A program made the translations under genes and the position numbers. A DNA stretch of 64,000 nucleotides from an uncultured Dehalococcoidales bacterium (GTDB lineage Bacteria; Chloroflexota; Dehalococcoidia; Dehalococcoidales; UBA5627). The DNA is taken from positions 26,558-90,557 of the forward strand of contig CAYNQR010000002.1 in assembly GCA_964399425.1 (NCBI GenBank). The letters are read 5' to 3'. Below are positions 989 through 47,555 of this stretch, one piece after another (the stretch's first letter is position 1; the number at the start of each line of letters is the position of its first letter). The notes below the pieces were generated by a model. The model ran no database searches. It was not told the DNA's origin and was given only the letters and a program-made list of their open reading frames with translations.

Positions 989-1822
989 CTACCCCAGCAC
1001 CACGTTATCGATCAATCTTGTTTTGCCGAACTTGACTGCCATAGATACCAGCGCTTTTCCGGTAATCTCATCCAGCTCGTCGAGGGTAACGGGGTCGGCA
1101 ACCGAAACATAATCTATTCTAGCCAATTCCTCGGTTTTAATCAGCCTGACCATTTCTTTGCGGATGGTCTCGGCCTTTCTTTCGCCTTGGTCATACAAGT
1201 CCTTTACAAGCATCAGCGAGCGATATAAAACGGTAGCCGCCTGCCTGTCTTCGGTATTTAAGTAGACATTGCGGCTGCTCATTGCCAGTCCGTCCTCTTC
1301 GCGGATAGTAGGGCAGGTAATTACATCGAGGTTCATGTTCAGGTCTTTTACCATCTTGTTGATAACGATAACCTGCTGGGCATCCTTCTGCCCGAAGTAG
1401 GCTCTATCAGGTCTCACTATATTGAATAGTTTATTGACAACCGTTGTCACTCCGCGGAAATGTCCCGGGCGGCAATTCCCTTCCAATTTCTGGGTTATGC
1501 CGGTAACTTCGACACGACTGCTGAAATCAGGCGGATACATCTCTATGGCTTCGGGCGCGAATACTGCATCGACTCCCTCTTCCTCCAGCATTTCTGTATC
1601 GCCTTCCATATCACGCGGATATTTTTCAAAGTCTTCATTCGGGCCGAACTGGGTCGGGTTGACGAAGATGCTGACGACGACAGAAGCGTTTTCTTCTTTT
1701 GCTTTCCTGACAAGTGAAATATGACCTTCATGTAAATATCCCATAGTGGGGACGAAGCCGACAGGCTCGCATAGCGTTTTTCTGAAATCCCGCATTTCGC
1801 TGATAGTATTGATTATTTTCAT
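989..1822 (-). CDS. panC: pantoate--beta-alanine ligase
   Basis: 277 aa. The VPTMGYLHEGHISLV HIGH-like motif and overall PanC-like sequence are present. It is the last gene of the pan operon. Confidence 0.95.
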   Translation of the reverse strand: MKIINTISEMRDFRKTLCEPVGFVPTMGYLHEGHISLVRKAKEENASVVVSIFVNPTQFGPNEDFEKYPRDMEGDTEMLEEEGVDAVFAPEAIEMYPPDFSSRVEVTGITQKLEGNCRPGHFRGVTTVVNKLFNIVRPDRAYFGQKDAQQVIVINKMVKDLNMNLDVITCPTIREEDGLAMSSRNVYLNTEDRQAATVLYRSLMLVKDLYDQGERKAETIRKEMVRLIKTEELARIDYVSVADPVTLDELDEITGKALVSMAVKFGKTRLIDNVVLG

Positions 1823-2178
1823 ATCGTCTTGTATCTATCCTTATCTGCAAAATAGTCTATTGCTCTGAATCCGGGGTGGATTCTTGCGCTGTGTATGGCT
1901 CCGGCAGTGATAAAATAGGTATCGCCCCGGCTGTATTTATTAGTTTTGCCATCGACCGTCAATTCAATTATTCCGTCGATTACTATGCCCCACTGGTCAC
2001 CGTGGCTGTGCTCGGATACAACGACTTCTACATCGGACTCATTGAATAAAATCTGCCCCGAATCGCTTTGAAGCAGCCATCCGCTTAAACCGTTGAAAGC
2101 TATATTTGCCCGTGGCAGCTTTTTTACGAAATCGGGGAATTCTGATGAATTCACAACGGCTCCTGCAAGGTTATTCAA
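1819..2178 (-). CDS. cupin domain protein embedded in the pan operon
   Basis: 119 aa. Cupin motifs SEHSHGDQWGIVIDG and GDTYFITAGAIHSARI are present. It abuts the panB stop and overlaps the panC start by 4 nt. Confidence 0.7.
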   Translation of the reverse strand: MNNLAGAVVNSSEFPDFVKKLPRANIAFNGLSGWLLQSDSGQILFNESDVEVVVSEHSHGDQWGIVIDGIIELTVDGKTNKYSRGDTYFITAGAIHSARIHPGFRAIDYFADKDRYKTI

Positions 2179-3012
2179 TCACCTGTCTTTTAGTTCGTTA
2201 AGAATGTTTTCATCCATCGGAAAACTCTGTGCTTCCGTGGGGAAAGCTCCCGATTTGACCTCTTCGTAGTATTTGCTGACGGCTCCGGACATCTCATCGG
2301 CGATTCTGGCATACTGTTTGGTATGTTTCGGCACGAAGTCGGTAAACAGCCCCAGTATATCGCTTATAACCTGCACCTGTCCGTCGCAGCCGGCTCCGGC
2401 GCCGATACCGATAGTAGGTATGCTTATGCTCTCAGAAATAAAAGCAGCCAGCGCTGCGGGAACCGTCTCCAGCACCACGGCAAAAGCGCCCGCCTGTTCT
2501 ACGGCTTTAGCATCTTCCAGCAGCTTTTTAGCTGTCTCTGAGTCTTTACCCTGTATTTTATAGCCGCCGAGCTGATTGACGGATTGCGGGGTTAAACCGA
2601 TGTGGCTCATCACCGGTATGCCGCAATCGACAATTCTTTTAATCTTGTCGGCAGCATTGACTCCGCCTTCTACCTTGACCGCCTGTGCTCCGCCTTCCTG
2701 TATAAAGCGGGCGGCATTCGACAAAGCCTGTTCCGCACTTATATGATAGCTCATGAAAGGCATATCGCCGATGACCATAGCATTGTTAGAGCCGCGTACC
2801 ACCGCTTTGGTATGGTGAATCATATCGTCCATGGTGACCGGAATGGTGGAATCATAGCCCAGTATTACCATTCCCAGGCTGTCTCCGACCAGTATAACGG
2901 GTACTTGCGCCTCATCGATAATCTTGGCTGTCATATAATCATAGGCGGTCAGCACAGCGATTTTCTCGCCTTTCTGCTTCATTGCTTTTACCCGGGTTAC
3001 AGTTGTTCTCAT
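2179..3012 (-). CDS. panB: 3-methyl-2-oxobutanoate hydroxymethyltransferase
   Basis: 277 aa with typical PanB sequence (LTAYDY..., ILVGDSLGMV..., GADA-like region). Confidence 0.95.
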   Translation of the reverse strand: MRTTVTRVKAMKQKGEKIAVLTAYDYMTAKIIDEAQVPVILVGDSLGMVILGYDSTIPVTMDDMIHHTKAVVRGSNNAMVIGDMPFMSYHISAEQALSNAARFIQEGGAQAVKVEGGVNAADKIKRIVDCGIPVMSHIGLTPQSVNQLGGYKIQGKDSETAKKLLEDAKAVEQAGAFAVVLETVPAALAAFISESISIPTIGIGAGAGCDGQVQVISDILGLFTDFVPKHTKQYARIADEMSGAVSKYYEEVKSGAFPTEAQSFPMDENILNELKDR

Positions 3013-3022
3013 ACCAGCCTCT

Positions 3023-3400
3023 TTAGAAGGAAAGCGATTCGATAGAGTGTTTTATGGTGGTAATTTCGTTATTTTTATTTACATGAACCATTGTCGGGCT
3101 GAAATCTTCCGTATCGCTTTCCGCCATTTGACAATAGGTGAGGATAATAACGATATCGCCCTTGCAGACCAGGCGGGCGGAGGCCCCATTCAGGCAGATT
3201 TGCCCGCTGCCCGGCTCGCCTTCTATAGCGTATGTTGAAAAGCGCGCTCCATTATTGATGTTCAGGATATGCACCTGTTCATACGGCAGGATATCGGCTG
3301 CCTGCATCAGGTTCCGGTCAATTGTGATACTTCCCTCATAGTCAATGTTGAGGTCGGTAACACGTGCGCGATGGATTTTGCTTTTCATCATTGTTCTCAT
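3023..3400 (-). CDS. panD: aspartate 1-decarboxylase
   Basis: 125 aa. [25 protein letters not shown] contains the G-S self-processing site typical of PanD. Confidence 0.95.
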
Positions 3401-3414
3401 TTTTTACGCTCCGG

Positions 3415-4284
3415 TTATTGTATTGAGTGTTCGAGAATCCCTGCTATTTCTTCAGCCTGTGAAACATTCAGTTTGCCTTTCTCCATGGCAATCGGGATGG
3501 TATTTAAACCAAGCTCACGATACAATTTCGTGATATCGGGGTTTATTTTATCCAGTGCCGTTAAGTGTTTTTTTATTGTGCCCGAATCCCCGCGGGCAAT
3601 CGGCCCGGTCAAGCTCTGTGTTATTCCTATCGCTTCGATATTATTAAGCGTACCTCTCATCAGCGGCAATAGTGCCCGCACTGCCTTGTCACGGGGAATA
3701 TCTATATCTTCCCAGAGTCCGGCGGCAATATCGGTTAGCGTAACCAGGTAATTACAGGCGAAAACAGCTGCTGCGTGATAGATTACGCGGTCTTTCGATT
3801 TTAATTCAATCCAGTGCCCGCCAAGCATCTGTGCCATATTTTTAAGTTGTGCCAGCAAAGGTTCTTCGGCTTCTACGGCAAAGGTTATGCCTTTTAAACT
3901 ATCCTCCAACCCGGCAGCAAATGTTTGAAGCGGATGAAAAACCCCGGTTTGGCAGCCGGCTGTTTTTGCAGGATTCAAGATATCTACCGAGTCTGCGCCG
4001 CTGCAATGAACGACCATCTGTTCTTTGCGCCAGCGTACCTGGGAAGCCACTACAGGTATGACATCATCCGGCGTCGCGATAAAGATAAAGTCTGCGTTAT
4101 CGGCAACCTGCTGGTTATCGCTTGCGGCACGGCACCCATCCAAACGGCTTGCCAACATCCTGGCTGATTCATATCCGCGGCTGGAGACGGCTGCAACTTT
4201 AAATCCACGCTTTTTGAACTCAATCGCAAGCATGGTTGCCAGCGCTCCGGCTCCGATAAACCCCAACCTGATTTTGTCAGTCAT
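3415..4284 (-). CDS. Rossmann-fold NAD(P)-binding oxidoreductase (DUF2520-type), first gene of the pan operon
   Basis: 289 aa. The N-terminal LGFIGAGALATMLA dinucleotide-binding loop is present, with a C-terminal helical domain. It sits directly upstream of panD. Confidence 0.65.
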   Translation of the reverse strand: MTDKIRLGFIGAGALATMLAIEFKKRGFKVAAVSSRGYESARMLASRLDGCRAASDNQQVADNADFIFIATPDDVIPVVASQVRWRKEQMVVHCSGADSVDILNPAKTAGCQTGVFHPLQTFAAGLEDSLKGITFAVEAEEPLLAQLKNMAQMLGGHWIELKSKDRVIYHAAAVFACNYLVTLTDIAAGLWEDIDIPRDKAVRALLPLMRGTLNNIEAIGITQSLTGPIARGDSGTIKKHLTALDKINPDITKLYRELGLNTIPIAMEKGKLNVSQAEEIAGILEHSIQ

Positions 4285-4302
4285 TATTCATCCCCGGCAT
4301 TT

Positions 4303-4339
4303 AAAAATAAAAAAACCTTCTCCGAAACAACGGGAAGGT
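4303..4339 (-). terminator. intrinsic terminator / attenuator hairpin upstream of the pan operon
   Basis: Read on the minus strand: ACCTTCCCG-ttgttt-CGGAGAAGGT followed by TTTTTTTATTTTT. It ends about 19 nt before the ATG at 4284. Confidence 0.7.
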
Positions 4340-4436
4340 CAATAAAACATCCGCGTCTCGGTCTTTTGGATCCAAGCGATTTATACCGGCTAATAACCAA
4401 AAGCTCACCGCCATAAGGTCGATGGCCTATAACTTA

Positions 4437-4465
4437 ATTGTATTAACCCCGGATGGATATGTCAA
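4437..4465 (-). promoter_or_regulatory. sigma70-like promoter (TTGACA-17-TACAAT) facing the pan operon
   Basis: Read on the minus strand: TTGACA tatccatccggggttaa TACAAT. It starts 5 nt after the stop of the 148-aa ORF. Confidence 0.55.
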
Positions 4466-4469
4466 ATAA

Positions 4470-4916
4470 TTATGAATGTTTCTTTACTGATGGTGCGATA
4501 TCATGGTCTCTATCCCACCAAAGTAATAGAAGAATACTCCCATATTTTATACACCACATTCTACACTTGCCAGTTATTCTAAATGAGTATATTTCATCGA
4601 TATCATCTAATTCTATCTGTTGAAGTCTTTCTTTTTGTTCCCTAGTCAATTCGTCAACCGGTTTTGGATGAAAACTTCCATTATCTCTTAACTGTTCTGT
4701 GTTCATGTTTTCAAATGCGCGCAGTCTTTCCCATAATTGTTGAAAATCGTTGTGGGAAAAATCATTACAAGCATATGGGCCCCCTATATCAGCCTTGCTA
4801 AATCTCCATGATATATAGTAATTTTCGATATTAGCGGGTCCCAGGTATATAGCAGTCTTTCTTGCTGTTTGCGGGTTTTGGGGGGTAGGGATATATTTCT
4901 TTTTACTGTTTTTCAA
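4470..4916 (-). CDS. hypothetical 148-aa protein, candidate toxin partner of the Panacea-domain gene
   Basis: It has a TTG start and a 14-nt overlap with the upstream Panacea gene. The coding sequence is AT-rich. I recognise no family. The C-terminal FRITGKCRMWCIKYGSILLLLWWDRDH is only reminiscent of RelE/ParE-fold strands. Confidence 0.55.
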   Translation of the reverse strand: MKNSKKKYIPTPQNPQTARKTAIYLGPANIENYYISWRFSKADIGGPYACNDFSHNDFQQLWERLRAFENMNTEQLRDNGSFHPKPVDELTREQKERLQQIELDDIDEIYSFRITGKCRMWCIKYGSILLLLWWDRDHDIAPSVKKHS

Positions 4917-5355
4917 TGTTCAAAATTAGCCCGGTATAATACTCTTCCATATCATCTAAGGTGATTTCAGAATCACCTCTTTCCCCAGGCCCTAAACCAG
5001 CACGTTTACGAGCATTAAGCCAAGGAGCTTCACTGTGAGTGAGTTCACTTAACCAGGTAGGTTCTTTATCACCATAAACACCTAGAGTTAAATCAATGAT
5101 TTCTCTTTGGTCTTTCGTGAGGTTAGAAGAATTTCCATCTATTTCAGATATACAATAAGCTCCCCGATGACGGTTATATAAATCAGGAATAACAGGTCCA
5201 TTTGCCCAAGCCTCAATTCTTGAATCAAATAAAGGTTTATTGTTCCAAACTAAAGACCAAGCTTGCGCATAAAAACAAAGTTTTTGAAGTTTCCAAGTAG
5301 TAATTTGCCCCTGTTTTTGGAGAATATAACAAGCTACATCTAATACATTAGCCAC
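4903..5355 (-). CDS. Panacea / DUF4065 (SocA-like) antitoxin-domain protein
   Basis: VLDVACYILQKQGQITTWKLQKLCFYAQAWSLVW...EAWANGPVIPDLY matches the DUF4065 signature. I prefer the GTG at 5355, which lies 8 nt after GAAGGAG, over the ORF-track start at 5364. Confidence 0.8.
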   Translation of the reverse strand: MANVLDVACYILQKQGQITTWKLQKLCFYAQAWSLVWNNKPLFDSRIEAWANGPVIPDLYNRHRGAYCISEIDGNSSNLTKDQREIIDLTLGVYGDKEPTWLSELTHSEAPWLNARKRAGLGPGERGDSEITLDDMEEYYTGLILNIEKQ

Positions 5356-5383
5356 TTTACACACTCCTTCTTAATTACACCCA

Positions 5384-5435
5384 ATAATAACATAATAGAA
5401 CAATTTGTCAATATTTTCTTGACATCCCTTGTCAA
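5384..5435 (-). promoter_or_regulatory. promoter with inverted-repeat operator for the Panacea cassette
   Basis: On the minus strand, TTGACA (5411-5406), a 16-nt spacer and TATTAT (5389-5384). Immediately upstream is the inverted repeat TTGACA-aggga-TGTCAA (5435-5419). Confidence 0.55.
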
Positions 5436-5484
5436 TCTTTGAAAATAATATGCTACTCAAATAGCTAATTTTATTGTACATTTG

Positions 5485-6267
5485 TTATTGGATAAGGCTG
5501 ATTTCCTTGAAGATATCCGAACATATTATATCGTTCAAACCGGCGGCTTTTCTCTGGAAAAGCGTTTCGTTTAGTGGGGTAATCGAAATAATTTTTTCTT
5601 TTAAGGCATAGATATCGGTATCTTTTTCCGCGTTGTTGTTAAGCTGCTGCCTGACCAGCCAGTAGTATTCGTGTTTACCGTCATGCCCTTCCTTTACGGT
5701 ATCAATATGAGTTTTATGCGCCTGGCGGGTTATTTTAATGCCTTTTATTTCTGAAACCGGGTAGTCGGGAATATTTATATTCAAAAAGAAATCCCCGGAT
5801 AAACTTTTATCCTTGAATTTTCCTGCTATCAGTCCGACCAAACGCGCCGCATTATCGATATTCTCATTCTCGTAATTTAATACTGAAATTGCGATAGCGG
5901 GAACATTTCTCAGATACCCTTGCAGTGCGGCGCCGACCGTTCCCGAAATCAATATGTCGTCGCCGGTATTAAGCCCTTGGTTGATGCCTGAAATGACCAG
6001 GTCGGGCTTCTCTTTGACGACCATTTCCAGGCCTATTATGACGCTGTCGCCGGGGCTGCCCTCGACGGCGTAGGCGTCTATGTCGGGAACTAACGGATTG
6101 ATTTTATGGACGCGCAGGGGCTGGCGCAGGGTTACCATGGTGCCTGTGGCGCTCTGTTCCCTGTCCGGGGCTACCACTGTTACGGCTGCGATTCCCTGTA
6201 ATTCCTTAACCAAAGCCCATAAACCGGGGGAAAGTATTCCGTCATCGTTTGAAAGCAGTATATTCAT
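5485..6267 (-). CDS. surE: 5'/3'-nucleotidase SurE
   Basis: 260 aa. The MNILLSNDDGILSPG N-terminus is diagnostic of SurE. Confidence 0.93.
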   Translation of the reverse strand: MNILLSNDDGILSPGLWALVKELQGIAAVTVVAPDREQSATGTMVTLRQPLRVHKINPLVPDIDAYAVEGSPGDSVIIGLEMVVKEKPDLVISGINQGLNTGDDILISGTVGAALQGYLRNVPAIAISVLNYENENIDNAARLVGLIAGKFKDKSLSGDFFLNINIPDYPVSEIKGIKITRQAHKTHIDTVKEGHDGKHEYYWLVRQQLNNNAEKDTDIYALKEKIISITPLNETLFQRKAAGLNDIICSDIFKEISLIQ

Positions 6268-6389
6268 ATCGTTAAATCAATTGATAATAAAGTTTAGCAG
6301 ATGCATATCGTAACGACAAATATAATAACGATTACCCGATATTTTCTTAAAATATGAATTATTGTTATACTAGACAACAGGAGTTTGCC

Positions 6390-7265
6390 ATGAAGAAGAT
6401 ATCCGATATTTTCAGCGAGAAAGAGAGAACTTTTTCATTCGAGTTTTTTCCTCCCAAAACGGAAGCCGGAATGGTAAAACTGTATGAGATAGCTGAAACC
6501 TTTGCCGCGCTTAAACCGGATTGGTTTTCGGTAACTTACGGCGCCGGCGGCGGCACCCGCGACCTTACCCTGGATATCGTCGATAAATTCCAAAAGCGTT
6601 TCGGGATACCCACCATGCATCATTTTTCATGCGTCGGCGACAGTAAACAGGCTCTGGCAGAGAAAATAGAAGAGATGAAAAGAAGGAATATCCGTAATAT
6701 CTTTGCCCTGCGCGGCGACCCTCCGGCCGAGGATGAAAACTGGAAACCGGCTGTCGACGGATGCGAATACTGTTATCAGCTTATTGAAATGATTCGCCAA
6801 CACGGCGATTTCTTCAGTATCGGTGTTGCCGGATTCCCCGAGGGGCATATCCATTGCCCGAACAGGGAACTGGATTCGATTTATCTGAAGAAGAAAATCG
6901 ATTCCGGCGGTGATTTCGTGATTACCCAGATATTTTTCGAAAATAAAGACTATTTCGAGTATGTCGAGAGGTTAAGGAAGGCGGGCGTAAAAGAGCGTAT
7001 TCTGCCCGGTATCATGTCGATTACCAATTATCAAAAACTACTTTCCTTCTGCAAGGGATGCGGGGCGACGGTGCCTCAAAAAATCCACGATATTTTTGTC
7101 CCACTCGACGGAGACGATGAAGCAACCTATAAAGCCGGGGTTGAATTTACTACCAGGCAATGTCAAGAACTGCTTGAAGGCGGCGCTCCCGGCATCCAGT
7201 TTTTCACTTTAAACAAACTCGACCCTGTCAGGGAAGTTGTTGAAAACATTAAACATTATTTTTAA
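6390..7265 (+). CDS. metF: methylenetetrahydrofolate reductase
   Basis: FSFEFFPPKT...SVTYGAGG...ALRGDPP motifs are present. The ATG at 6390 is preceded by AGGAG, so it is preferred over 6354. Confidence 0.92.
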   Translation: MKKISDIFSEKERTFSFEFFPPKTEAGMVKLYEIAETFAALKPDWFSVTYGAGGGTRDLTLDIVDKFQKRFGIPTMHHFSCVGDSKQALAEKIEEMKRRNIRNIFALRGDPPAEDENWKPAVDGCEYCYQLIEMIRQHGDFFSIGVAGFPEGHIHCPNRELDSIYLKKKIDSGGDFVITQIFFENKDYFEYVERLRKAGVKERILPGIMSITNYQKLLSFCKGCGATVPQKIHDIFVPLDGDDEATYKAGVEFTTRQCQELLEGGAPGIQFFTLNKLDPVREVVENIKHYF

Positions 7266-7280
7266 ACAGAAAGTATACGC

Positions 7281-8336
7281 GTGAAAACCAGCGATTTCGA
7301 TTATTATCTGCCACCGGAAATGATTGCCCAAACCCCGGTCGAACCCAGAGACAGCTCCCGTCTTCTGGTAATCAACCGCAAGGATTCCAGCATAACCCAT
7401 GTGAATGCCTTTTCCGATATCTGCCGCTATTTGAAAGAGGGGGATGTGCTGATGTTCAATAACAGCCGTGTTATGCCGGCGCGCCTGAAAGGCATCAAGC
7501 CTGAAACGGGCGGTAAAGTGGAGCTGCTGCTTTTAAAGCACATGGAAGACGGTTCATGGGAAGCGCTGGTAAAGCCGGGCAAGCGCGTCAGAACCGGCAC
7601 AAAAATCGAGCTGTACAATGATTCTCTCCCTCCGGAAGAAAAAATACCTGTCGTTTTTGCCGAAATAGTGGATATCAAGGATGAGGGAATCAAGCTGGTG
7701 CGCTTTTCCGACGAGAAATATCTGCCTGTGCTGGGGAAAATGCCGCTTCCGCCCTATATTCACACACCTTTGAAGAATCCCGAAAGGTATCAAACTATCT
7801 ATTCCGATATCGAAAAAACAGGCAGTGCCGCCGCTCCAACTGCCGGTCTGCATTTTACCCCCAAACTTATGGATGCCCTGCATAAAAACGGAATCAAGTG
7901 CCTTTTTACCACGCTGCATGTCGGATTGGATACCTTCCGTCCGGTACAGGGCGAAGACCTTAGCCAGCATAAACTGCACTTCGAATACGGCTATATCAGC
8001 AAAGAGGTTGCCGATGAGGTCTCCCGTGCCAAGAGGGATGGCAGAAGGGTAATCTGCGTAGGAACGACATCGGTCAGGCTGGTCGAATATGCGGCAGGCA
8101 TCAGTAAAAATGCTCCGTTAGACCCGTTCGAGGGTTGGGTTAATCTGTTCATACTGCCGGGCTATAAATTTCTTATCCCCGATGCCATGATTACCAATTT
8201 CCACCTGCCGAAATCGACCCTGTTGATGATGGTAAGCGCCTTCGGTGGGATGGAACTGATGAAAAAAGCTTATCAGGAAGCAATCGAGAAGAATTACCGC
8301 TTTTACAGCTTCGGCGATGCTATGCTGATTTTGTAA
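7281..8336 (+). CDS. queA: S-adenosylmethionine:tRNA ribosyltransferase-isomerase
   Basis: 351 aa. FDYYLPPEMIAQTPVEPRDSSRLLV, then TAGLHFT and HVGLDTFRP, are present. Confidence 0.95.
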   Translation: MKTSDFDYYLPPEMIAQTPVEPRDSSRLLVINRKDSSITHVNAFSDICRYLKEGDVLMFNNSRVMPARLKGIKPETGGKVELLLLKHMEDGSWEALVKPGKRVRTGTKIELYNDSLPPEEKIPVVFAEIVDIKDEGIKLVRFSDEKYLPVLGKMPLPPYIHTPLKNPERYQTIYSDIEKTGSAAAPTAGLHFTPKLMDALHKNGIKCLFTTLHVGLDTFRPVQGEDLSQHKLHFEYGYISKEVADEVSRAKRDGRRVICVGTTSVRLVEYAAGISKNAPLDPFEGWVNLFILPGYKFLIPDAMITNFHLPKSTLLMMVSAFGGMELMKKAYQEAIEKNYRFYSFGDAMLIL

Positions 8337-8456
8337 GGGGAAAGTTGCAATTATGCGGTAATATTTACTCCGTATTACAATTTTAGTCAAATTTTCCGCG
8401 TGAAAGAGTTGTCTTGAAAGGCAAAGTGTCTTATTATAAAAGTAGAGGAAAGTCTA

Positions 8457-8756
8457 ATGAAAAAAATTGATATAATCGTTAAGAAAATAGAAAGCCTAAA
8501 GCCGATACTTAAAGAACAATTTAAGGTTGAAAGTATTGGCATTTTTGGCTCCTATACGAAAGGCACTCAAAGAAAGGATAGCGATATCGATATCTTAGTT
8601 GAATTTGAGGAATCGGCTGACTTGAGCCTTCTGGATTTTATTAAATTGGAGAATTATCTAAGCGAAGTACTGAAACTAAAGGTAGATCTGGTTGAAAAAA
8701 CTGCTTTAAAACCCAGGATAGGGATGCGTATTTTGGAAGAAGTCATCAGATTATGA
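8457..8756 (+). CDS. mntA: nucleotidyltransferase-domain antitoxin (MntA-type)
   Basis: 99 aa. The GIFGSYTKGTQRKDSDIDILVEF minimal NTase motif (GS...DxD) is present. It overlaps the next gene by 4 nt. Confidence 0.85.
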   Translation: MKKIDIIVKKIESLKPILKEQFKVESIGIFGSYTKGTQRKDSDIDILVEFEESADLSLLDFIKLENYLSEVLKLKVDLVEKTALKPRIGMRILEEVIRL

Positions 8757-9097
8757 AAGGGGAGTTTCTGGATTATCTCGAAGACATTGCCGAAGCTATG
8801 GGCGATGTGATGAAATTTGTGAAGAATACACAAGAGTATGATGATTTCGCTGCGGATAAAAAGACGATCTATGCTGTTACCAGGGCGATAGAAATTATTG
8901 GCGAGGCATCTAAAAAAATACCCGATAAAGTAAAAACGGATTATTCGCAGATACCCTGGAAAGAAATGGCCGGTATGCGCGATAAGCTGATCCATGAGTA
9001 TTTCGGTGTTGATACTAAAAGAGTCTGGAATACTGTTAAAAAGGATATTCCCGGTTTAATCCCCTTGTTTGATAAGATTCTAAAGGATTTAAAATAA
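8753..9097 (+). CDS. hepT: HepT (DUF86, HEPN) toxin
   Basis: 114 aa. RDKLIHEYFGVD is the Rx4HxY HEPN motif. Confidence 0.85.
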   Translation: MKGEFLDYLEDIAEAMGDVMKFVKNTQEYDDFAADKKTIYAVTRAIEIIGEASKKIPDKVKTDYSQIPWKEMAGMRDKLIHEYFGVDTKRVWNTVKKDIPGLIPLFDKILKDLK

Positions 9098-9233
9098 GAA
9101 TTATCTGTTTATTTTGTTTAACGATTTTTCACAGTTACAATCATTTTTGAAATTAATCGTTGTTTTCAATCTTTTCAGTCGCTCGTGTTGAGTTCCGACC
9201 AGTCGGGACGAGACTGATGAGGGTTGTAAATCT

Positions 9234-11585
9234 CTACCTCAAATTGATAACCGTCACACCATCCCCGCCCTCGCCGGCAGGTACGGTTTCGAAATTCTTT
9301 ACCAGCGGGTGGTGTGATGCCAGATCGCGCACAATCGAGCGTACCGTTCCGGTACCGTAGCCATGCACGATGCGCACTCTTTTCAGGTTGGAGACGGCGG
9401 CATCGTTTAAGTAGTTATCCAGCAGTACCTCTACCTCGTCGGCGCGTTTGCCGCGCAGGTCGAGTTCCATCGACATCTGTCGTAACGGAATATTCACCTG
9501 CACGCTGTAATCCTTTTCTTTTTTATCATCAGACGACAACTTTAATAAGCCGTTGCGGTCGGTTTTGAAGCTCATCGACCCGGTTGTTACTTCCACCTGC
9601 CCGGTCCTGTCATTTATCGAGATCACTTTCGCCTTGACGCCGACTTCCTTGATCAGCACGTTATCGCCGACAGATATAACCGAATCGTCCTCAGGCAATG
9701 TTTCCTCTTCTTCAGCCAGAAGACCCTCACGTATTTGCTGGCGAACGGATTGAGATGTTTGCCGGGCTCCCCTGATAGCTTGCTGCGATTTCTCCCTGCG
9801 CAGCTCGGTAACGACGATTTTCAGTTCCTTTTCCAGCCGCGATACCTCTTCGATAATGGAGTCGCGGGCGTTCTGCTTCAATATCTGCTTTTCTTCCTTG
9901 AATTTCTTCAATTCGGTTGTCAGTTCTCTATTCTGGCGTGTGTATAATATTTTTGCGTCTTCCAGTTCCCGGTTCAACGTCTCCAACCTTTGTTTTTCCT
10001 GCTGGATATTGGTTAACAGTTCTTCCAGTTGGCGCGAGCCTTCCTGCAGAGAGCTTCTGGCCATGCTTATGACCTCTTGCGGCAACCCGAAATGAGCGGC
10101 GGTAGCGATGGCGTTGGAGCCGCCGGGGGTTCCCAGCGTCAGCTTATAAGTCGGGTTCATCGTCTCGGGGTCGAAATCGAACGAGGCATTCTGCAATCCC
10201 TCGGTTACATGCGCAAATACCTTCAAGTCTGTATAATGGGTAGTCACGGCAGCCAGAGAGTGAGAGGCGAATATATGGAGTAAAATCGCCCTGCCTAAAG
10301 CCGAGCCTTCATTGGGGTCGGTGCTGGCTCCCAGTTCGTCTAAAAGAACCAAATTATAGCCCTGTAATTTTTTCAGGATGCGGGCAATATTGCTCATATG
10401 CCAGCTGAAGGTCGAGAGCGTCTGCGCAATGCTTTGCTCATCCCCGATATCGGCATAGATGCCGTCAAGTACCGGCAGCCTGCTGGTAGGTGCGGCGGGA
10501 ATCGGCAGTCCGGACTGCGTCATCAGGCATAACAAGCCGATTGTTTTTAAGGCGACGGTCTTGCCCCCGGTATTGGGCCCGGTGATAATCAGGATCGAAA
10601 AATCGCTGCCGATTTCAATGCTGAGCGGAACGGCACTGTCTCCCAGCAGGGGATGGCGGGCGTCATCGAGCTTGATTACGGGAGGCGTAGATGAATCCGC
10701 TTTATAAACAGAGGCCTCGCTGGCCTTGAAACGCCGCGCAAAACGCGCTTTTGCCAGTGCCAGGTCGAGTACGGCAGTAGCTTCGATGCTGTCGATTATA
10801 TCATCGCTGACACCGCCGATTAGTTCGCTTATTTCGGTCAGTATGCGGGCAATTTCACGTTTTTCCTCTATTTGTTCTTCTTTTAAGGCGTTGCCAAGTT
10901 CCAGCGCCTGTAATGGTTCGATAAACAGGGTGGCTCCCGAATTGGAAACATCATGAACGATGCCGCTGATTTCCTTGCGGTATTCACTCTTAATCGGGAT
11001 GACATAACGTCCTTCACGCTCTGTGATTAAAGCTTCCTGGATGAAATGCTGCTGCGTTCCGGTGGATATAAGCCCCTGTAAAGTATTCATCAGGGCAGAC
11101 TTTTTTGCCTGCTGGTTCTGTCGTATCGATATCAGTTTTGCCGAGGCGTTGGGCAGGATTTCGCCGTCTATGGAAATCGCCCGGTCGATGGCTCTTTCAA
11201 TCGGGATAAATTCGCTGATGCGGTCGGCATATTCGAATAACACGGGGAATTTATCGGGATGGTCTGCTATTTCGCTACGCAGCAGGCGCATTGTCTGCAA
11301 AGAGGTACAAATCAACCTGAGCGTTTTCGGGTCGAGTACCTGCCCGCGGGATGCGGCAACAGCATAATCGCGAATATCCTCGACTCCGCTGGCGGACGCC
11401 GAACTGTCCGCTTCAATCAAAACGCCGGCTTCCTTCGATTCCTCAAGACGTTTATTTATTTCGTCAATGTCGGTAGAAGGGGATAGAGATATCGCCATAT
11501 CGCGGCTGATCGAAAACGAACAATAGCCGGCGATGATTTCACGGATGCGCGGGAATTCCAGCAGTTCCAGGTCTTTGTTGTCCAT
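9234..11585 (-). CDS. mutS2: endonuclease MutS2
   Basis: The Walker A motif ITGPNTGGKT, a long coiled-coil and a C-terminal Smr domain (LDLRGKRADEV...IVHGYGTG) are present. Homology begins at MDNKDLELLEF (ATG at 11585), and the upstream 122 codons of the ORF run through a repeat element. Confidence 0.92.
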   Translation of the reverse strand: MDNKDLELLEFPRIREIIAGYCSFSISRDMAISLSPSTDIDEINKRLEESKEAGVLIEADSSASASGVEDIRDYAVAASRGQVLDPKTLRLICTSLQTMRLLRSEIADHPDKFPVLFEYADRISEFIPIERAIDRAISIDGEILPNASAKLISIRQNQQAKKSALMNTLQGLISTGTQQHFIQEALITEREGRYVIPIKSEYRKEISGIVHDVSNSGATLFIEPLQALELGNALKEEQIEEKREIARILTEISELIGGVSDDIIDSIEATAVLDLALAKARFARRFKASEASVYKADSSTPPVIKLDDARHPLLGDSAVPLSIEIGSDFSILIITGPNTGGKTVALKTIGLLCLMTQSGLPIPAAPTSRLPVLDGIYADIGDEQSIAQTLSTFSWHMSNIARILKKLQGYNLVLLDELGASTDPNEGSALGRAILLHIFASHSLAAVTTHYTDLKVFAHVTEGLQNASFDFDPETMNPTYKLTLGTPGGSNAIATAAHFGLPQEVISMARSSLQEGSRQLEELLTNIQQEKQRLETLNRELEDAKILYTRQNRELTTELKKFKEEKQILKQNARDSIIEEVSRLEKELKIVVTELRREKSQQAIRGARQTSQSVRQQIREGLLAEEEETLPEDDSVISVGDNVLIKEVGVKAKVISINDRTGQVEVTTGSMSFKTDRNGLLKLSSDDKKEKDYSVQVNIPLRQMSMELDLRGKRADEVEVLLDNYLNDAAVSNLKRVRIVHGYGTGTVRSIVRDLASHHPLVKNFETVPAGEGGDGVTVINLR

Positions 11586-24196: not shown

Positions 24197-24444
24197 ATAT
24201 TTTCCTGTATACTCCTTTTATTGACAATAGATTATAGCAGTTATTCGATTGCGTGAAAATAGCACTCGCGTATCGAAATGAGACCGACGATAGTTATTCT
24301 TTAAATATTACGGAATTTATATTTTCCATAATTGTATAAGTCTACAGGGATAAATAATCATTATATCAATCGTAATTATTTATTAATAAGAGGAGTAATA
24401 ACGATATATTGACATTATTACAACGAGTATGTTATAAATGTATG

Positions 24445-24556
24445 ATTTCTCCGGAGCTGTTATGCCTAAGGAACGTTCTATGGCGGGCAGCCGGTAGATG
24501 AAATATCTAGACGGCACTACCGGAAACGGTTTTGCTTCCCGTTGGAAAAGGAGAAG
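24445..24556 (+). promoter_or_regulatory. candidate molybdenum-cofactor (Moco) riboswitch
   Basis: P1 pairs TTCTCC with GGAGAA. Internal elements are CTCCGGAGC, the GCCGgTAGAT/ATCTAgaCGGC hairpin, ACCG-GAAA-CGGT, GCTTCCCG and AAAAGGAG. A TTGACA-18-TATAAA promoter sits at 24409-24438. The element lies upstream of modABC. Confidence 0.55.
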
Positions 24557-24558
24557 AA

Positions 24559-24672
24559 ATGAATTATTGCCGTATAACGCCTTTCATATCAATTAAGAAC
24601 TCATGTCTTTTTTCTCTGTTTCCCGAACTTTGTCAGGTAGTCCTGTTTTACCGTCAGGTAAAGTGCGTCTGA
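24559..24672 (+). CDS. possible 37-codon leader ORF (MNYCRITPFISIKNSCLFSLFPELCQVVLFYRQVKCV)
   Basis: Its ATG lies 5 nt after AAGGAG, and that SD forms the 3' strand of the proposed riboswitch P1. There is no homology evidence. Confidence 0.2.
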   Translation: MNYCRITPFISIKNSCLFSLFPELCQVVLFYRQVKCV

Positions 24673-42424: not shown

Positions 42425-42701
42425 TTTATTAGAAAGGCGATGAGGGAGAAGAGTAGGTAGCAAGCTGCAGTCAGCGAGTCTGGTATGGTGGGAGCAGACC
42501 TGTAAATTCTATCGAAAATCACTCCGGAGCTGCCAACCGAAGGGCGTTGAAGCGAGTAGGCTTGGACGGATTTGTCCTCCGTTATCGATGACAGGGGCAT
42601 CATATATGCCTTATCGAGTGCCTCCGTTGTATGCGGGGGAATCCGGGTGGTACCGCGGGTTAATTTAATCCCGTCCCGAGTCAGGGGCGGGATATTTTTT
42701 T
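42425..42701 (+). promoter_or_regulatory. T-box leader (Ile specifier) with terminator
   Basis: The stem I elements are GGCGATGAGGGAGAAGAGTAGG. The specifier context is GAAAATCA, with ATC at 42518-42520. The T-box sequence AATCCGGGTGGTACCGCGGG lies at 42640-42659. The terminator is AATCCCGTCCC-gagtca-GGGGCGGGAT followed by a T7 run. Confidence 0.88.
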
Positions 42702-47258: not shown

Positions 47259-47555
47259 AAAAAACAAAAAACCCTTCAACCTTATAAGGTTGAAGGGGCA
47301 TAGGCTTTACCTCTGCGGTGCCACCCTTCTTAGTCTAACTAATGTGAAAGACCATCTCTTTTCGGATACTTAATAATATCCTGGGATTCGATAACGCTTC
47401 CCCTGCGGTAAAACCTACCTGTAATTATTACTTTCGGTTTACGGCTCCCAGTCCCATTCGGTTTCTGCGCCGGCATCGGCTCACACCTTCCCCGACTCTC
47501 TGTGCTTCGCTGGAAAACTTACTATTCCTGTTCGCAGCCTTTGAATATTAAATTA
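47259..47555 (-). promoter_or_regulatory. T-box leader (probable Trp specifier) with terminator
   Basis: On the minus strand the stem I elements are GCGAACAGGAATAGTAAG and CAGAGAG. The specifier candidate is GAAACCGAATGGGA (UGG). The T-box sequence is AAGAAGGGTGGCACCGCAG. The terminator is CCCCTTCAACC-ttataa-GGTTGAAGGG followed by a T-run. A TTGACA-18-TATAGT promoter sits at about 47591-47562. Confidence 0.75.

Follow-up and report, generated by a model that had tools for sequence, protein, structure and literature searches.

A tandem pan motif RNA and a proposed terminator switch in the leader of a Dehalococcoidales pantothenate operon

In the uncultured Dehalococcoidales bacterium represented by assembly GCA_964399425.1, a pantothenate (pan) operon begins directly behind an intrinsic terminator, which raises the question of how this operon is read and what its leader responds to. 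We analyzed the stretch of 64,000 nucleotides (nt) of contig CAYNQR010000002.1 that contains it, referred to here as the window; all leader, hairpin, and operon coordinates are window positions on the minus strand (Table 1). The original prediction had proposed a promoter, a strong terminator just before the first ATG of the operon, and between them a leader that could be an attenuator or a pan motif RNA. From the comparison of this leader with those of many relatives, we consider it reasonably probable that a tandem pan RNA coupled to a terminator switch controls the pantothenate operon.

The leader carries two hairpins in tandem, H1 and H2, 23 nt apart, each a stem in which either strand has one bulged A residue, 5 base pairs (bp) away from the other. 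Weinberg et al. 2010 (Genome Biol 11:R31) described pan hairpins as stems with two conserved bulged A residues, most but not all of them in tandem, and listed the family for three phyla, Chloroflexi among them; Bacillus subtilis is one of the carriers of the motif. The Rfam pan model (RF01749) aligned over its whole length (positions 1-92 of 92) to 4349-4427(-) at 34.7 bits, with an E value of 1.8e-4 for the region, or of 0.032 when the whole window was searched with all 4227 families. This score is 1.5 bits below the gathering score of 36.2 bits that serves as membership threshold, which speaks against a pan assignment and explains why the motif was not reported for the window in the gathering-threshold Rfam scan. 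As a covariance-model match, the motif that had been suggested was therefore found end to end and yet fell short of the family cut-off. The low score can be attributed to H2, whose loop differs and whose lower stem (GCGG in place of GGCA) has two pairs fewer than that of most relatives.

To place the leader among its relatives, 80 loci encoding relatives of the first operon product, a DUF2520 protein, at 54-88% identity were fetched, and the leaders of 76 of them could be aligned with that of the window (77 leaders). In 13 of the first 20 relatives examined, the orthologous leader, directly upstream of the DUF2520 gene, had a pan match that exceeded the Rfam gathering score (37.1-48.2 bits). 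A further covariance model, R1, covers H1 and H2; its training set comprised 66 Dehalococcoidia leaders, many of them above the Rfam cut-off, and left out the window and its eight closest relatives. R1 matched 4347-4437(-) at 53.2 bits (E = 6.6e-11), the only significant match in the 64 kb, and the bulged A residues of H1 and H2 align to the bulge positions of R1 and of the Rfam consensus alike. Since both the relatives and this leave-clade-out model support homology, we filed the element as a pan RNA in spite of its sub-threshold Rfam score, and regard this identity as almost certain; the proposal that the leader holds a pan motif is thereby borne out. Like the described motif, it has tandem bulged-A hairpins, the GGAUC...GACCG(A/G)GAC core, a position in the leader of a pantothenate operon, and a Chloroflexi host. 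The location expected of the motif, upstream of a panB, panC, or aspartate decarboxylase operon, is also found here. In contrast to the described pan RNAs, the first regulated gene here is not panB, panC, or panD but that of a DUF2520/PanG-type reductase. By itself the element is a slightly divergent, ordinary member of a known family. Further Rfam families that matched here, such as MicA and L10 leader (all with E >= 0.3), were set aside as chance matches to the terminator.

The promoter is present where it had been placed, as TTGACA-17-TACAAT at 4465-4437, and matched 11 of 12 consensus positions in the promoter scan. Its -35 box starts 5 nt past base 4470, the last of the stop codon of the open reading frame (ORF) 4470-4916. 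Promoter-like matches as such were not enriched in the region (20 found, 18.5 expected by chance), and the same promoter is kept in 72/76 related leaders, with a perfect TTGACA in 62. Transcription would start near 4430 and give a leader of about 146 nt. The strong terminator also proved to be as described: its fold reached -13.6 kcal/mol (z = -3.5), one of 200 shuffles was as stable, and its U tract ends 18 nt upstream of the ATG at 4284-4282. A simple terminator scan did not report this hairpin (4340-4303), probably because of its bulge.

Conservation of this arrangement was looked for in the 77-leader alignment. Nearly all relatives share one order, namely TTGACA promoter, H1, linker, H2, spacer, terminator, and start codon; the exceptions, L061 and L051, have no recognizable H1. 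The gap from promoter to H1 ranges from 4 to 35 nt and is mostly 8-23 nt. Over the three helices (H1, H2, and the terminator) 94.6% of cells were paired, a set of values that none of 500 shuffles reached. Compensatory changes were numerous in H1, where 8 of 10 pairs changed on both sides with about 96% of cells paired, and in the terminator, where 8 of 13 did so, so that the pairs of both helices covary. H2 was near-invariant, 7 of its 12 pairs never changing. The conservation of the leader that the pan assignment implied was thus found in 76 Dehalococcoidia relatives, which keep promoter, H1, H2, and terminator while their upstream genes differ. A hairpin with a U tract was present in 77/77 aligned leaders, and in the whole collection a terminator follows H2 in 166/197. 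Within the terminator (columns 173-225 of the leader alignment), the 5' arm (CCUUCUC) was far more conserved than the 3' arm, whose drift was by A-to-G change (U-A to U-G in 34 cells, as against C-G in 5). Such an asymmetry between the arms is unexpected for a plain terminator.

A different reading of the hairpin is that it terminates the two-gene cassette (4470-5411) lying between surE and the pan promoter, with the pan operon read from elsewhere and the resemblance to pan arising by chance. The cassette has its own strong promoter, and no further terminator separates ORF 4470-4916 from the leader, so that cassette transcripts starting from 5411-5384 would also end at this hairpin. Against this, both cassette ORFs are without a counterpart among the 80 relatives, which keep promoter, hairpins, and terminator (the latter in 77/77 leaders); surE lies directly upstream of the pan promoter in close relatives; and R1 matches the leader independently. 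The insertion boundary of the cassette adjoins the -35 box, where the window and the L007 intergenic region have CATAATTATTTGACATATCC in common. The cassette appears to be a recent insertion of a PanA-type toxin-antitoxin pair whose toxin is uncharacterized. We regard the cassette-terminator reading as refuted by the comparative data and leave it a very remote chance. As the terminator is kept in relatives with different upstream genes, all of which lack the cassette, it is, on this comparison, part of the pan leader and not of the toxin-antitoxin cassette.

If the terminator belongs to the leader, the operon needs a means of read-through, and the leader very probably acts by premature termination. 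In the mechanism that we propose, the operon would be transcribed from its own promoter, with a start near 4430; H1 and H2 would fold first, and the polymerase would then meet the terminator at 4340-4303. A factor reporting pantothenate/coenzyme A (CoA) sufficiency would bind the bulged-A hairpins and lock H2, the terminator would form, and the operon would be off. Without the factor, the H2 3' arm CCGAGACGG and the terminator 5' arm would form an antiterminator helix, allowing read-through into panG-panD-panB-panC. In the PyrR-controlled pyr leaders of Bacillus, the 3' half of the binding hairpin can likewise pair instead with the 5' half of the downstream terminator, and PyrR loaded with end product favors the terminator, so that the pyr operon is off when product is plentiful. 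The logic proposed for pan is the same, as a working analogy and with no claim of membership: PyrR sites differ in sequence and shape, and the pan protein is only hypothetical.

The antiterminator is suggested by the terminator itself, whose 3' arm GAGAAGGC copies the H2 3' arm GAGACGGC, so that the latter can pair with the terminator 5' arm. In the Dehalococcoidia alignment this alternative helix was 86-88% paired, compared with 37-57% for slid controls. An extension of it into the H2 and terminator loops (GAUACG with UGUGUC) was compatible with the sequences of the main clade and showed no significant covariation. A targeted duplex test was then applied, in place of a whole-structure energy test, to 166 leaders from many lineages with a detectable terminator; its statistics ignore relatedness. 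The duplex of H2 3' arm and terminator 5' arm had a median of -13.1 kcal/mol, compared with -8.6 kcal/mol for shuffled arms, and was individually at p <= 0.05 in 45% of these leaders, where 5% would be expected. The pairing was specific to this arm, the terminator 5' arms giving -7.9 kcal/mol with the H1 3' arm and -7.2 kcal/mol with the H2 5' arm. The terminators vary by lineage yet stay complementary, in different registers, to the invariant H2 3' arm: Dehalococcoidales use UGCCUUCUC with GAGACGGCA; in panD-first operons UCUCGGUCG pairs with CGACCGAGA, perfectly over nine pairs in L138 and L141; and a gut contig rich in AT has CAUUUCG opposite CGAGACG. Before the terminator 3' arm is made, the medians of the two states are nearly iso-energetic (-11.3 kcal/mol for H2 and -12.7 kcal/mol for the alternative), which fits what a switch requires. 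At the level of the family, we lean towards a competition of H2 with the antiterminator.

Several results weigh against the proposed switch. The start site, the termination, and the conditional read-through are all deduced from sequence. No covariation of the antiterminator beyond column shuffles was detected in the 77-leader alignment, a test that is uninformative because both strands are conserved; as H2 does not vary, no compensatory change between it and the antiterminator could be observed. The whole-structure energy test against shuffled terminator arms gave a weak signal (median z about -0.95). No candidate binding protein was found encoded in the operons examined. The window itself is a poor example: its duplex (-6.7 kcal/mol, compared with -8.3 kcal/mol for shuffled arms; z = +0.62) is the seventh weakest of the 166, and its terminator arm reads CCUUCCC rather than CCUUCUC, a U-to-C change that turns UCUC into UCCC. 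The 3' flank of the window H2 is GACGCGG rather than GACGGCA, and this H2 is also weak, at -6.7 kcal/mol. Either the two weak helices of the window copy still balance each other or this copy terminates more constitutively, and for the window the competition of H2 with the antiterminator is a tentative proposal.

These results bear on a further possibility, that of regulatory pan hairpins next to a terminator acting as a constant partial stop, with the hairpins controlling messenger RNA stability, processing, or translation. The missing antiterminator covariation, the lack of a convincing antiterminator in the window copy, and a few panB-first leaders with no obvious terminator before the start codon (L116 and L139) would agree with such a scheme. 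It accords poorly with the presence of a terminator after H2 in every one of the 77 genome-derived leaders and in most of the whole collection. Moreover, the terminator 5' arm stays complementary to the H2 3' arm while its sequence changes between lineages, which a constant terminator would not need. We consider the constant stop improbable. Four panB-first leaders (L116, L139, L191, and L193) have CAUCU(U/C)ACUC...GGAGA(A)GAUAGCC(A/G)UG in common around the ribosome-binding site, an element that may be a translational expression platform sequestering the Shine-Dalgarno sequence.

Other pairings and frames within the leader were also considered. In leader-peptide attenuation, translation of a short leader ORF would decide whether the terminator forms, and a frame of 37 codons does open at AUG 4414-4412 and continue across H2 and the terminator. 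This AUG, the only one to initiate a frame there, lies in the variable H1 loop with no Shine-Dalgarno sequence, does not occur in most relatives, their H1 loops being different, and heads a frame with nothing conserved as protein. We rejected the leader peptide and give it a negligible chance. Among the pairings noted in the original prediction, GCCAU...AUGGC is real and forms upper H1, and CUUUUGG 4403-4397 is indeed perfectly complementary to CCAAAAG 4369-4363, while the palindrome given as CTTGGATCCAAG was off by one base; the actual sequence is CTTGGATCCAAA, of which only TTGGATCCAA is palindromic. The first two bases of CUUUUGG lie inside the base of H1, and CCAAAAG comprises the H2 loop and 3' side. 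Pairing between the two would open H2. In the closest relative, L001, this pairing (GCUUUUGG/CCAAAAG) is retained only in part, and other relatives lack it; we treated it as lineage-specific or due to chance. The minimum free energy fold also pairs the linker sequence GCCGGUAU over a long range with AUGCCGG of the ribosome-binding region; by eye, the window has only the short palindromic CCGG in common with L001 and L006, and nothing with more distant relatives. On this comparison, the alternative pairings put forward earlier either fall within the pan hairpins or lack conservation.

What the leader responds to was approached through the genes that follow it. The window operon begins with the DUF2520 gene and not with panD or panB, since the DUF2520 ORF comes first after the leader; DUF2520 proteins have been described as homologues of the Francisella PanG reductase (PMC4572677). 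In relatives, too, the leader is followed by genes in this order. A scan of metagenomes for the exact H2 core returned 120 further loci from many lineages, 109 of them classifiable by their first downstream gene. In 97 of these the core precedes a pan operon, led by DUF2520 (47 loci), panB (15), a gene for an S58 peptidase followed by DUF2520-panD-panB-panC (14), panD (13), or panC (8). The first gene encodes an ECF-type ABC ATPase in another 7, a phosphonate-type binding protein in 1, and a molybdopterin oxidoreductase in 1, and is unclassified in 3. The ECF loci (L146 at 4321-10714, L164, L177, L130, L192, L082, and L113) often lack H1 and have the order ecfA-ecfA'-ecfT (CbiQ)-ECF S component-coaX (type III pantothenate kinase)-coaBC. 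Control by the pan motif therefore probably extends, judging from gene content, to pantothenate uptake and CoA synthesis. Because synthesis, probable uptake, and the first CoA-forming steps would all be under pan control, the gene set points to pantothenate/CoA sufficiency as the signal.

The S58-led pan loci include L083, L092, L096, L101, L106, L119, L127, L156, and L166, and in L146 an S58 peptidase gene stands at the end of the ECF operon. Peptidase_S58 proteins are DmpA/BapA-like aminopeptidases. By releasing beta-alanine, the peptidase may feed into pantothenate synthesis. Two complete pan leaders, each with a terminator, were also seen before the molybdopterin-oxidoreductase ORF of L091 and the gene for a phosphonate-type periplasmic binding protein in L183; neither gene is evidently connected with pantothenate. 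The terminator, the candidate antiterminator, the ECF transporter-coaX-coaBC genes, and the S58 peptidase gene are all absent from the main text of the 2010 description.

In L061, L130, and L192, H2 stands alone directly after the promoter. As several leaders thus carry H2 only, H2 would be the core sensor and H1 an accessory.

The nature of the factor that would bind these hairpins was weighed between a protein and a metabolite. A protein is favored because the helical bases of H2 are invariant instead of covarying, and because each hairpin has pseudo-symmetry, one bulged A per strand flanking a 5-bp helix. Of the two, we judged a dimeric RNA-binding protein the likelier; the chance that the effector is a protein we put at about even, and a metabolite effector seems unlikely. 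Weinberg et al. 2010 (Genome Biol 11:R31) likewise judged the motif to be the site of a dimeric protein, and their table has "?" in the "switch?" column for pan. Our search of the literature after 2010 found no solved pan ligand or protein. The cupin encoded between panB and panC in the window was rejected as a general regulatory partner, its gene being present in only 3 of the 80 related operons (L001, L010, and L080).

With the same terminator/antiterminator platform, the pan hairpins could instead be a riboswitch aptamer for pantothenate, 4'-phosphopantetheine, CoA, or a precursor, two hairpins giving cooperative sensing. The regulon spans synthesis, probable uptake, and CoA-forming steps, as do vitamin riboswitch regulons; the element spans several phyla, with no co-located regulator gene seen in the operons examined; and the H2-only versions imply that H2 alone suffices, wired directly to the terminator. 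Small tandem bulged hairpins also have precedents as aptamers. NAD+-I (nadA motif), guanidine-II (mini-ykkC), and the terminator-embedded HMP-PP aptamer have proven ligands and are very small hairpins, often in tandem, set against intrinsic terminators before biosynthetic or transport genes. The pan hairpins resemble these three in being very small, tandem, and placed directly at a terminator, and differ from them in having their conserved bases in helices and bulges, not in loops or junctions; Rfam scans showed no sequence or model similarity of the window element to any of the three families. Invariant rather than covarying helix bases and the lack of an elaborate junction also argue against an aptamer, as does the judgment of the discoverers. 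Reviews published in 2022 by the same laboratory still list CoA as lacking any riboswitch, which suggests that the obvious ligands were probably tried there without success. A riboswitch is thus an unlikely explanation, if one still worth keeping in view. In its narrowest form, H2 would be a minimal aptamer that directly senses CoA, 4'-phosphopantetheine, or pantothenate and acts on the terminator by way of the antiterminator, which we also think doubtful. If true, pan would be the long-missing riboswitch class of the CoA pathway, with synthesis (panG/B/C/D), uptake (ECF transporter and S component), and activation (coaX and coaBC) under its control.

We know of no established regulator of pantothenate synthesis and of no RNA sensor of the CoA pathway in these bacteria. 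The window copy alone is unsurprising, as a catalogued RNA family in a phylum already known for pan. What the comparison adds is a mutable switch model, in which H2 competes with an antiterminator that uses the invariant H2 3' arm, together with a standalone H2 and a wider gene set (the ECF transporter with coaX and coaBC, and the S58 peptidase). The motif has been an orphan since 2010; these family-level observations make the old question more testable, and the collected leaders form a test set for ligand or protein fishing.

Table 1. Positions of the leader elements, the pantothenate operon, and the upstream cassette in the window.
Feature	Position	Strand	Description	Source
Cassette promoter	5384-5411	-	Strong; TTGACA-16-TATTAT with extended TG	Sequence
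Panacea/SocA-domain antitoxin ORF	4903-5364	-		Pfam
148-aa protein	4470-4916	-	No Pfam family	Pfam
Sigma-70-type pan promoter	4437-4465	-	TTGACA 4465-4460, 17 nt, TACAAT 4442-4437	
pan hairpin H1	4402-4427	-	GGCCAUCG[A]CC-UUAU-GGCGGUG[A]GCU; bulged A4419, A4405	Rfam and R1 alignments
Inter-hairpin linker	4379-4401	-	Sequence and length vary among relatives	Leader alignment
pan hairpin H2	4354-4378	-	CGCUUGG[A]UC-CAAAA-GACCGAG[A]CG; bulged A4371, A4356; near-invariant motif core	Rfam and R1 alignments
Intrinsic terminator	4303-4340	-	G4340-G4331 with C4324-U4314, bulged A4321, loop UUGUUU, then U6-A-U5	
Shine-Dalgarno-like sequence and start codon, first operon gene	4282-4295	-	GGGGA 4295-4291; ATG 4284-4282	Sequence, ORF list
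Regulated operon	989-4284	-	DUF2520-panD-panB-cupin-panC, directly after leader	
DUF2520/Rossmann	3415-4284	-	Candidate PanG-type ketopantoate reductase	Pfam
panD	3023-3400	-		Pfam
panB	2179-3012	-		Pfam
Cupin	1819-2178	-	Cupin_2, 119 aa; between panB and panC	Pfam
panC	989-1822	-		Pfam

Other structured RNAs were detected elsewhere in the window. A T-box at 42431-42681(+) and a Moco riboswitch at 24437-24569(+) both scored above their Rfam cut-offs, and a T-box-like leader at 47291-47544(-) reached 86 bits (E = 3e-17), below the Rfam gathering score of 93.

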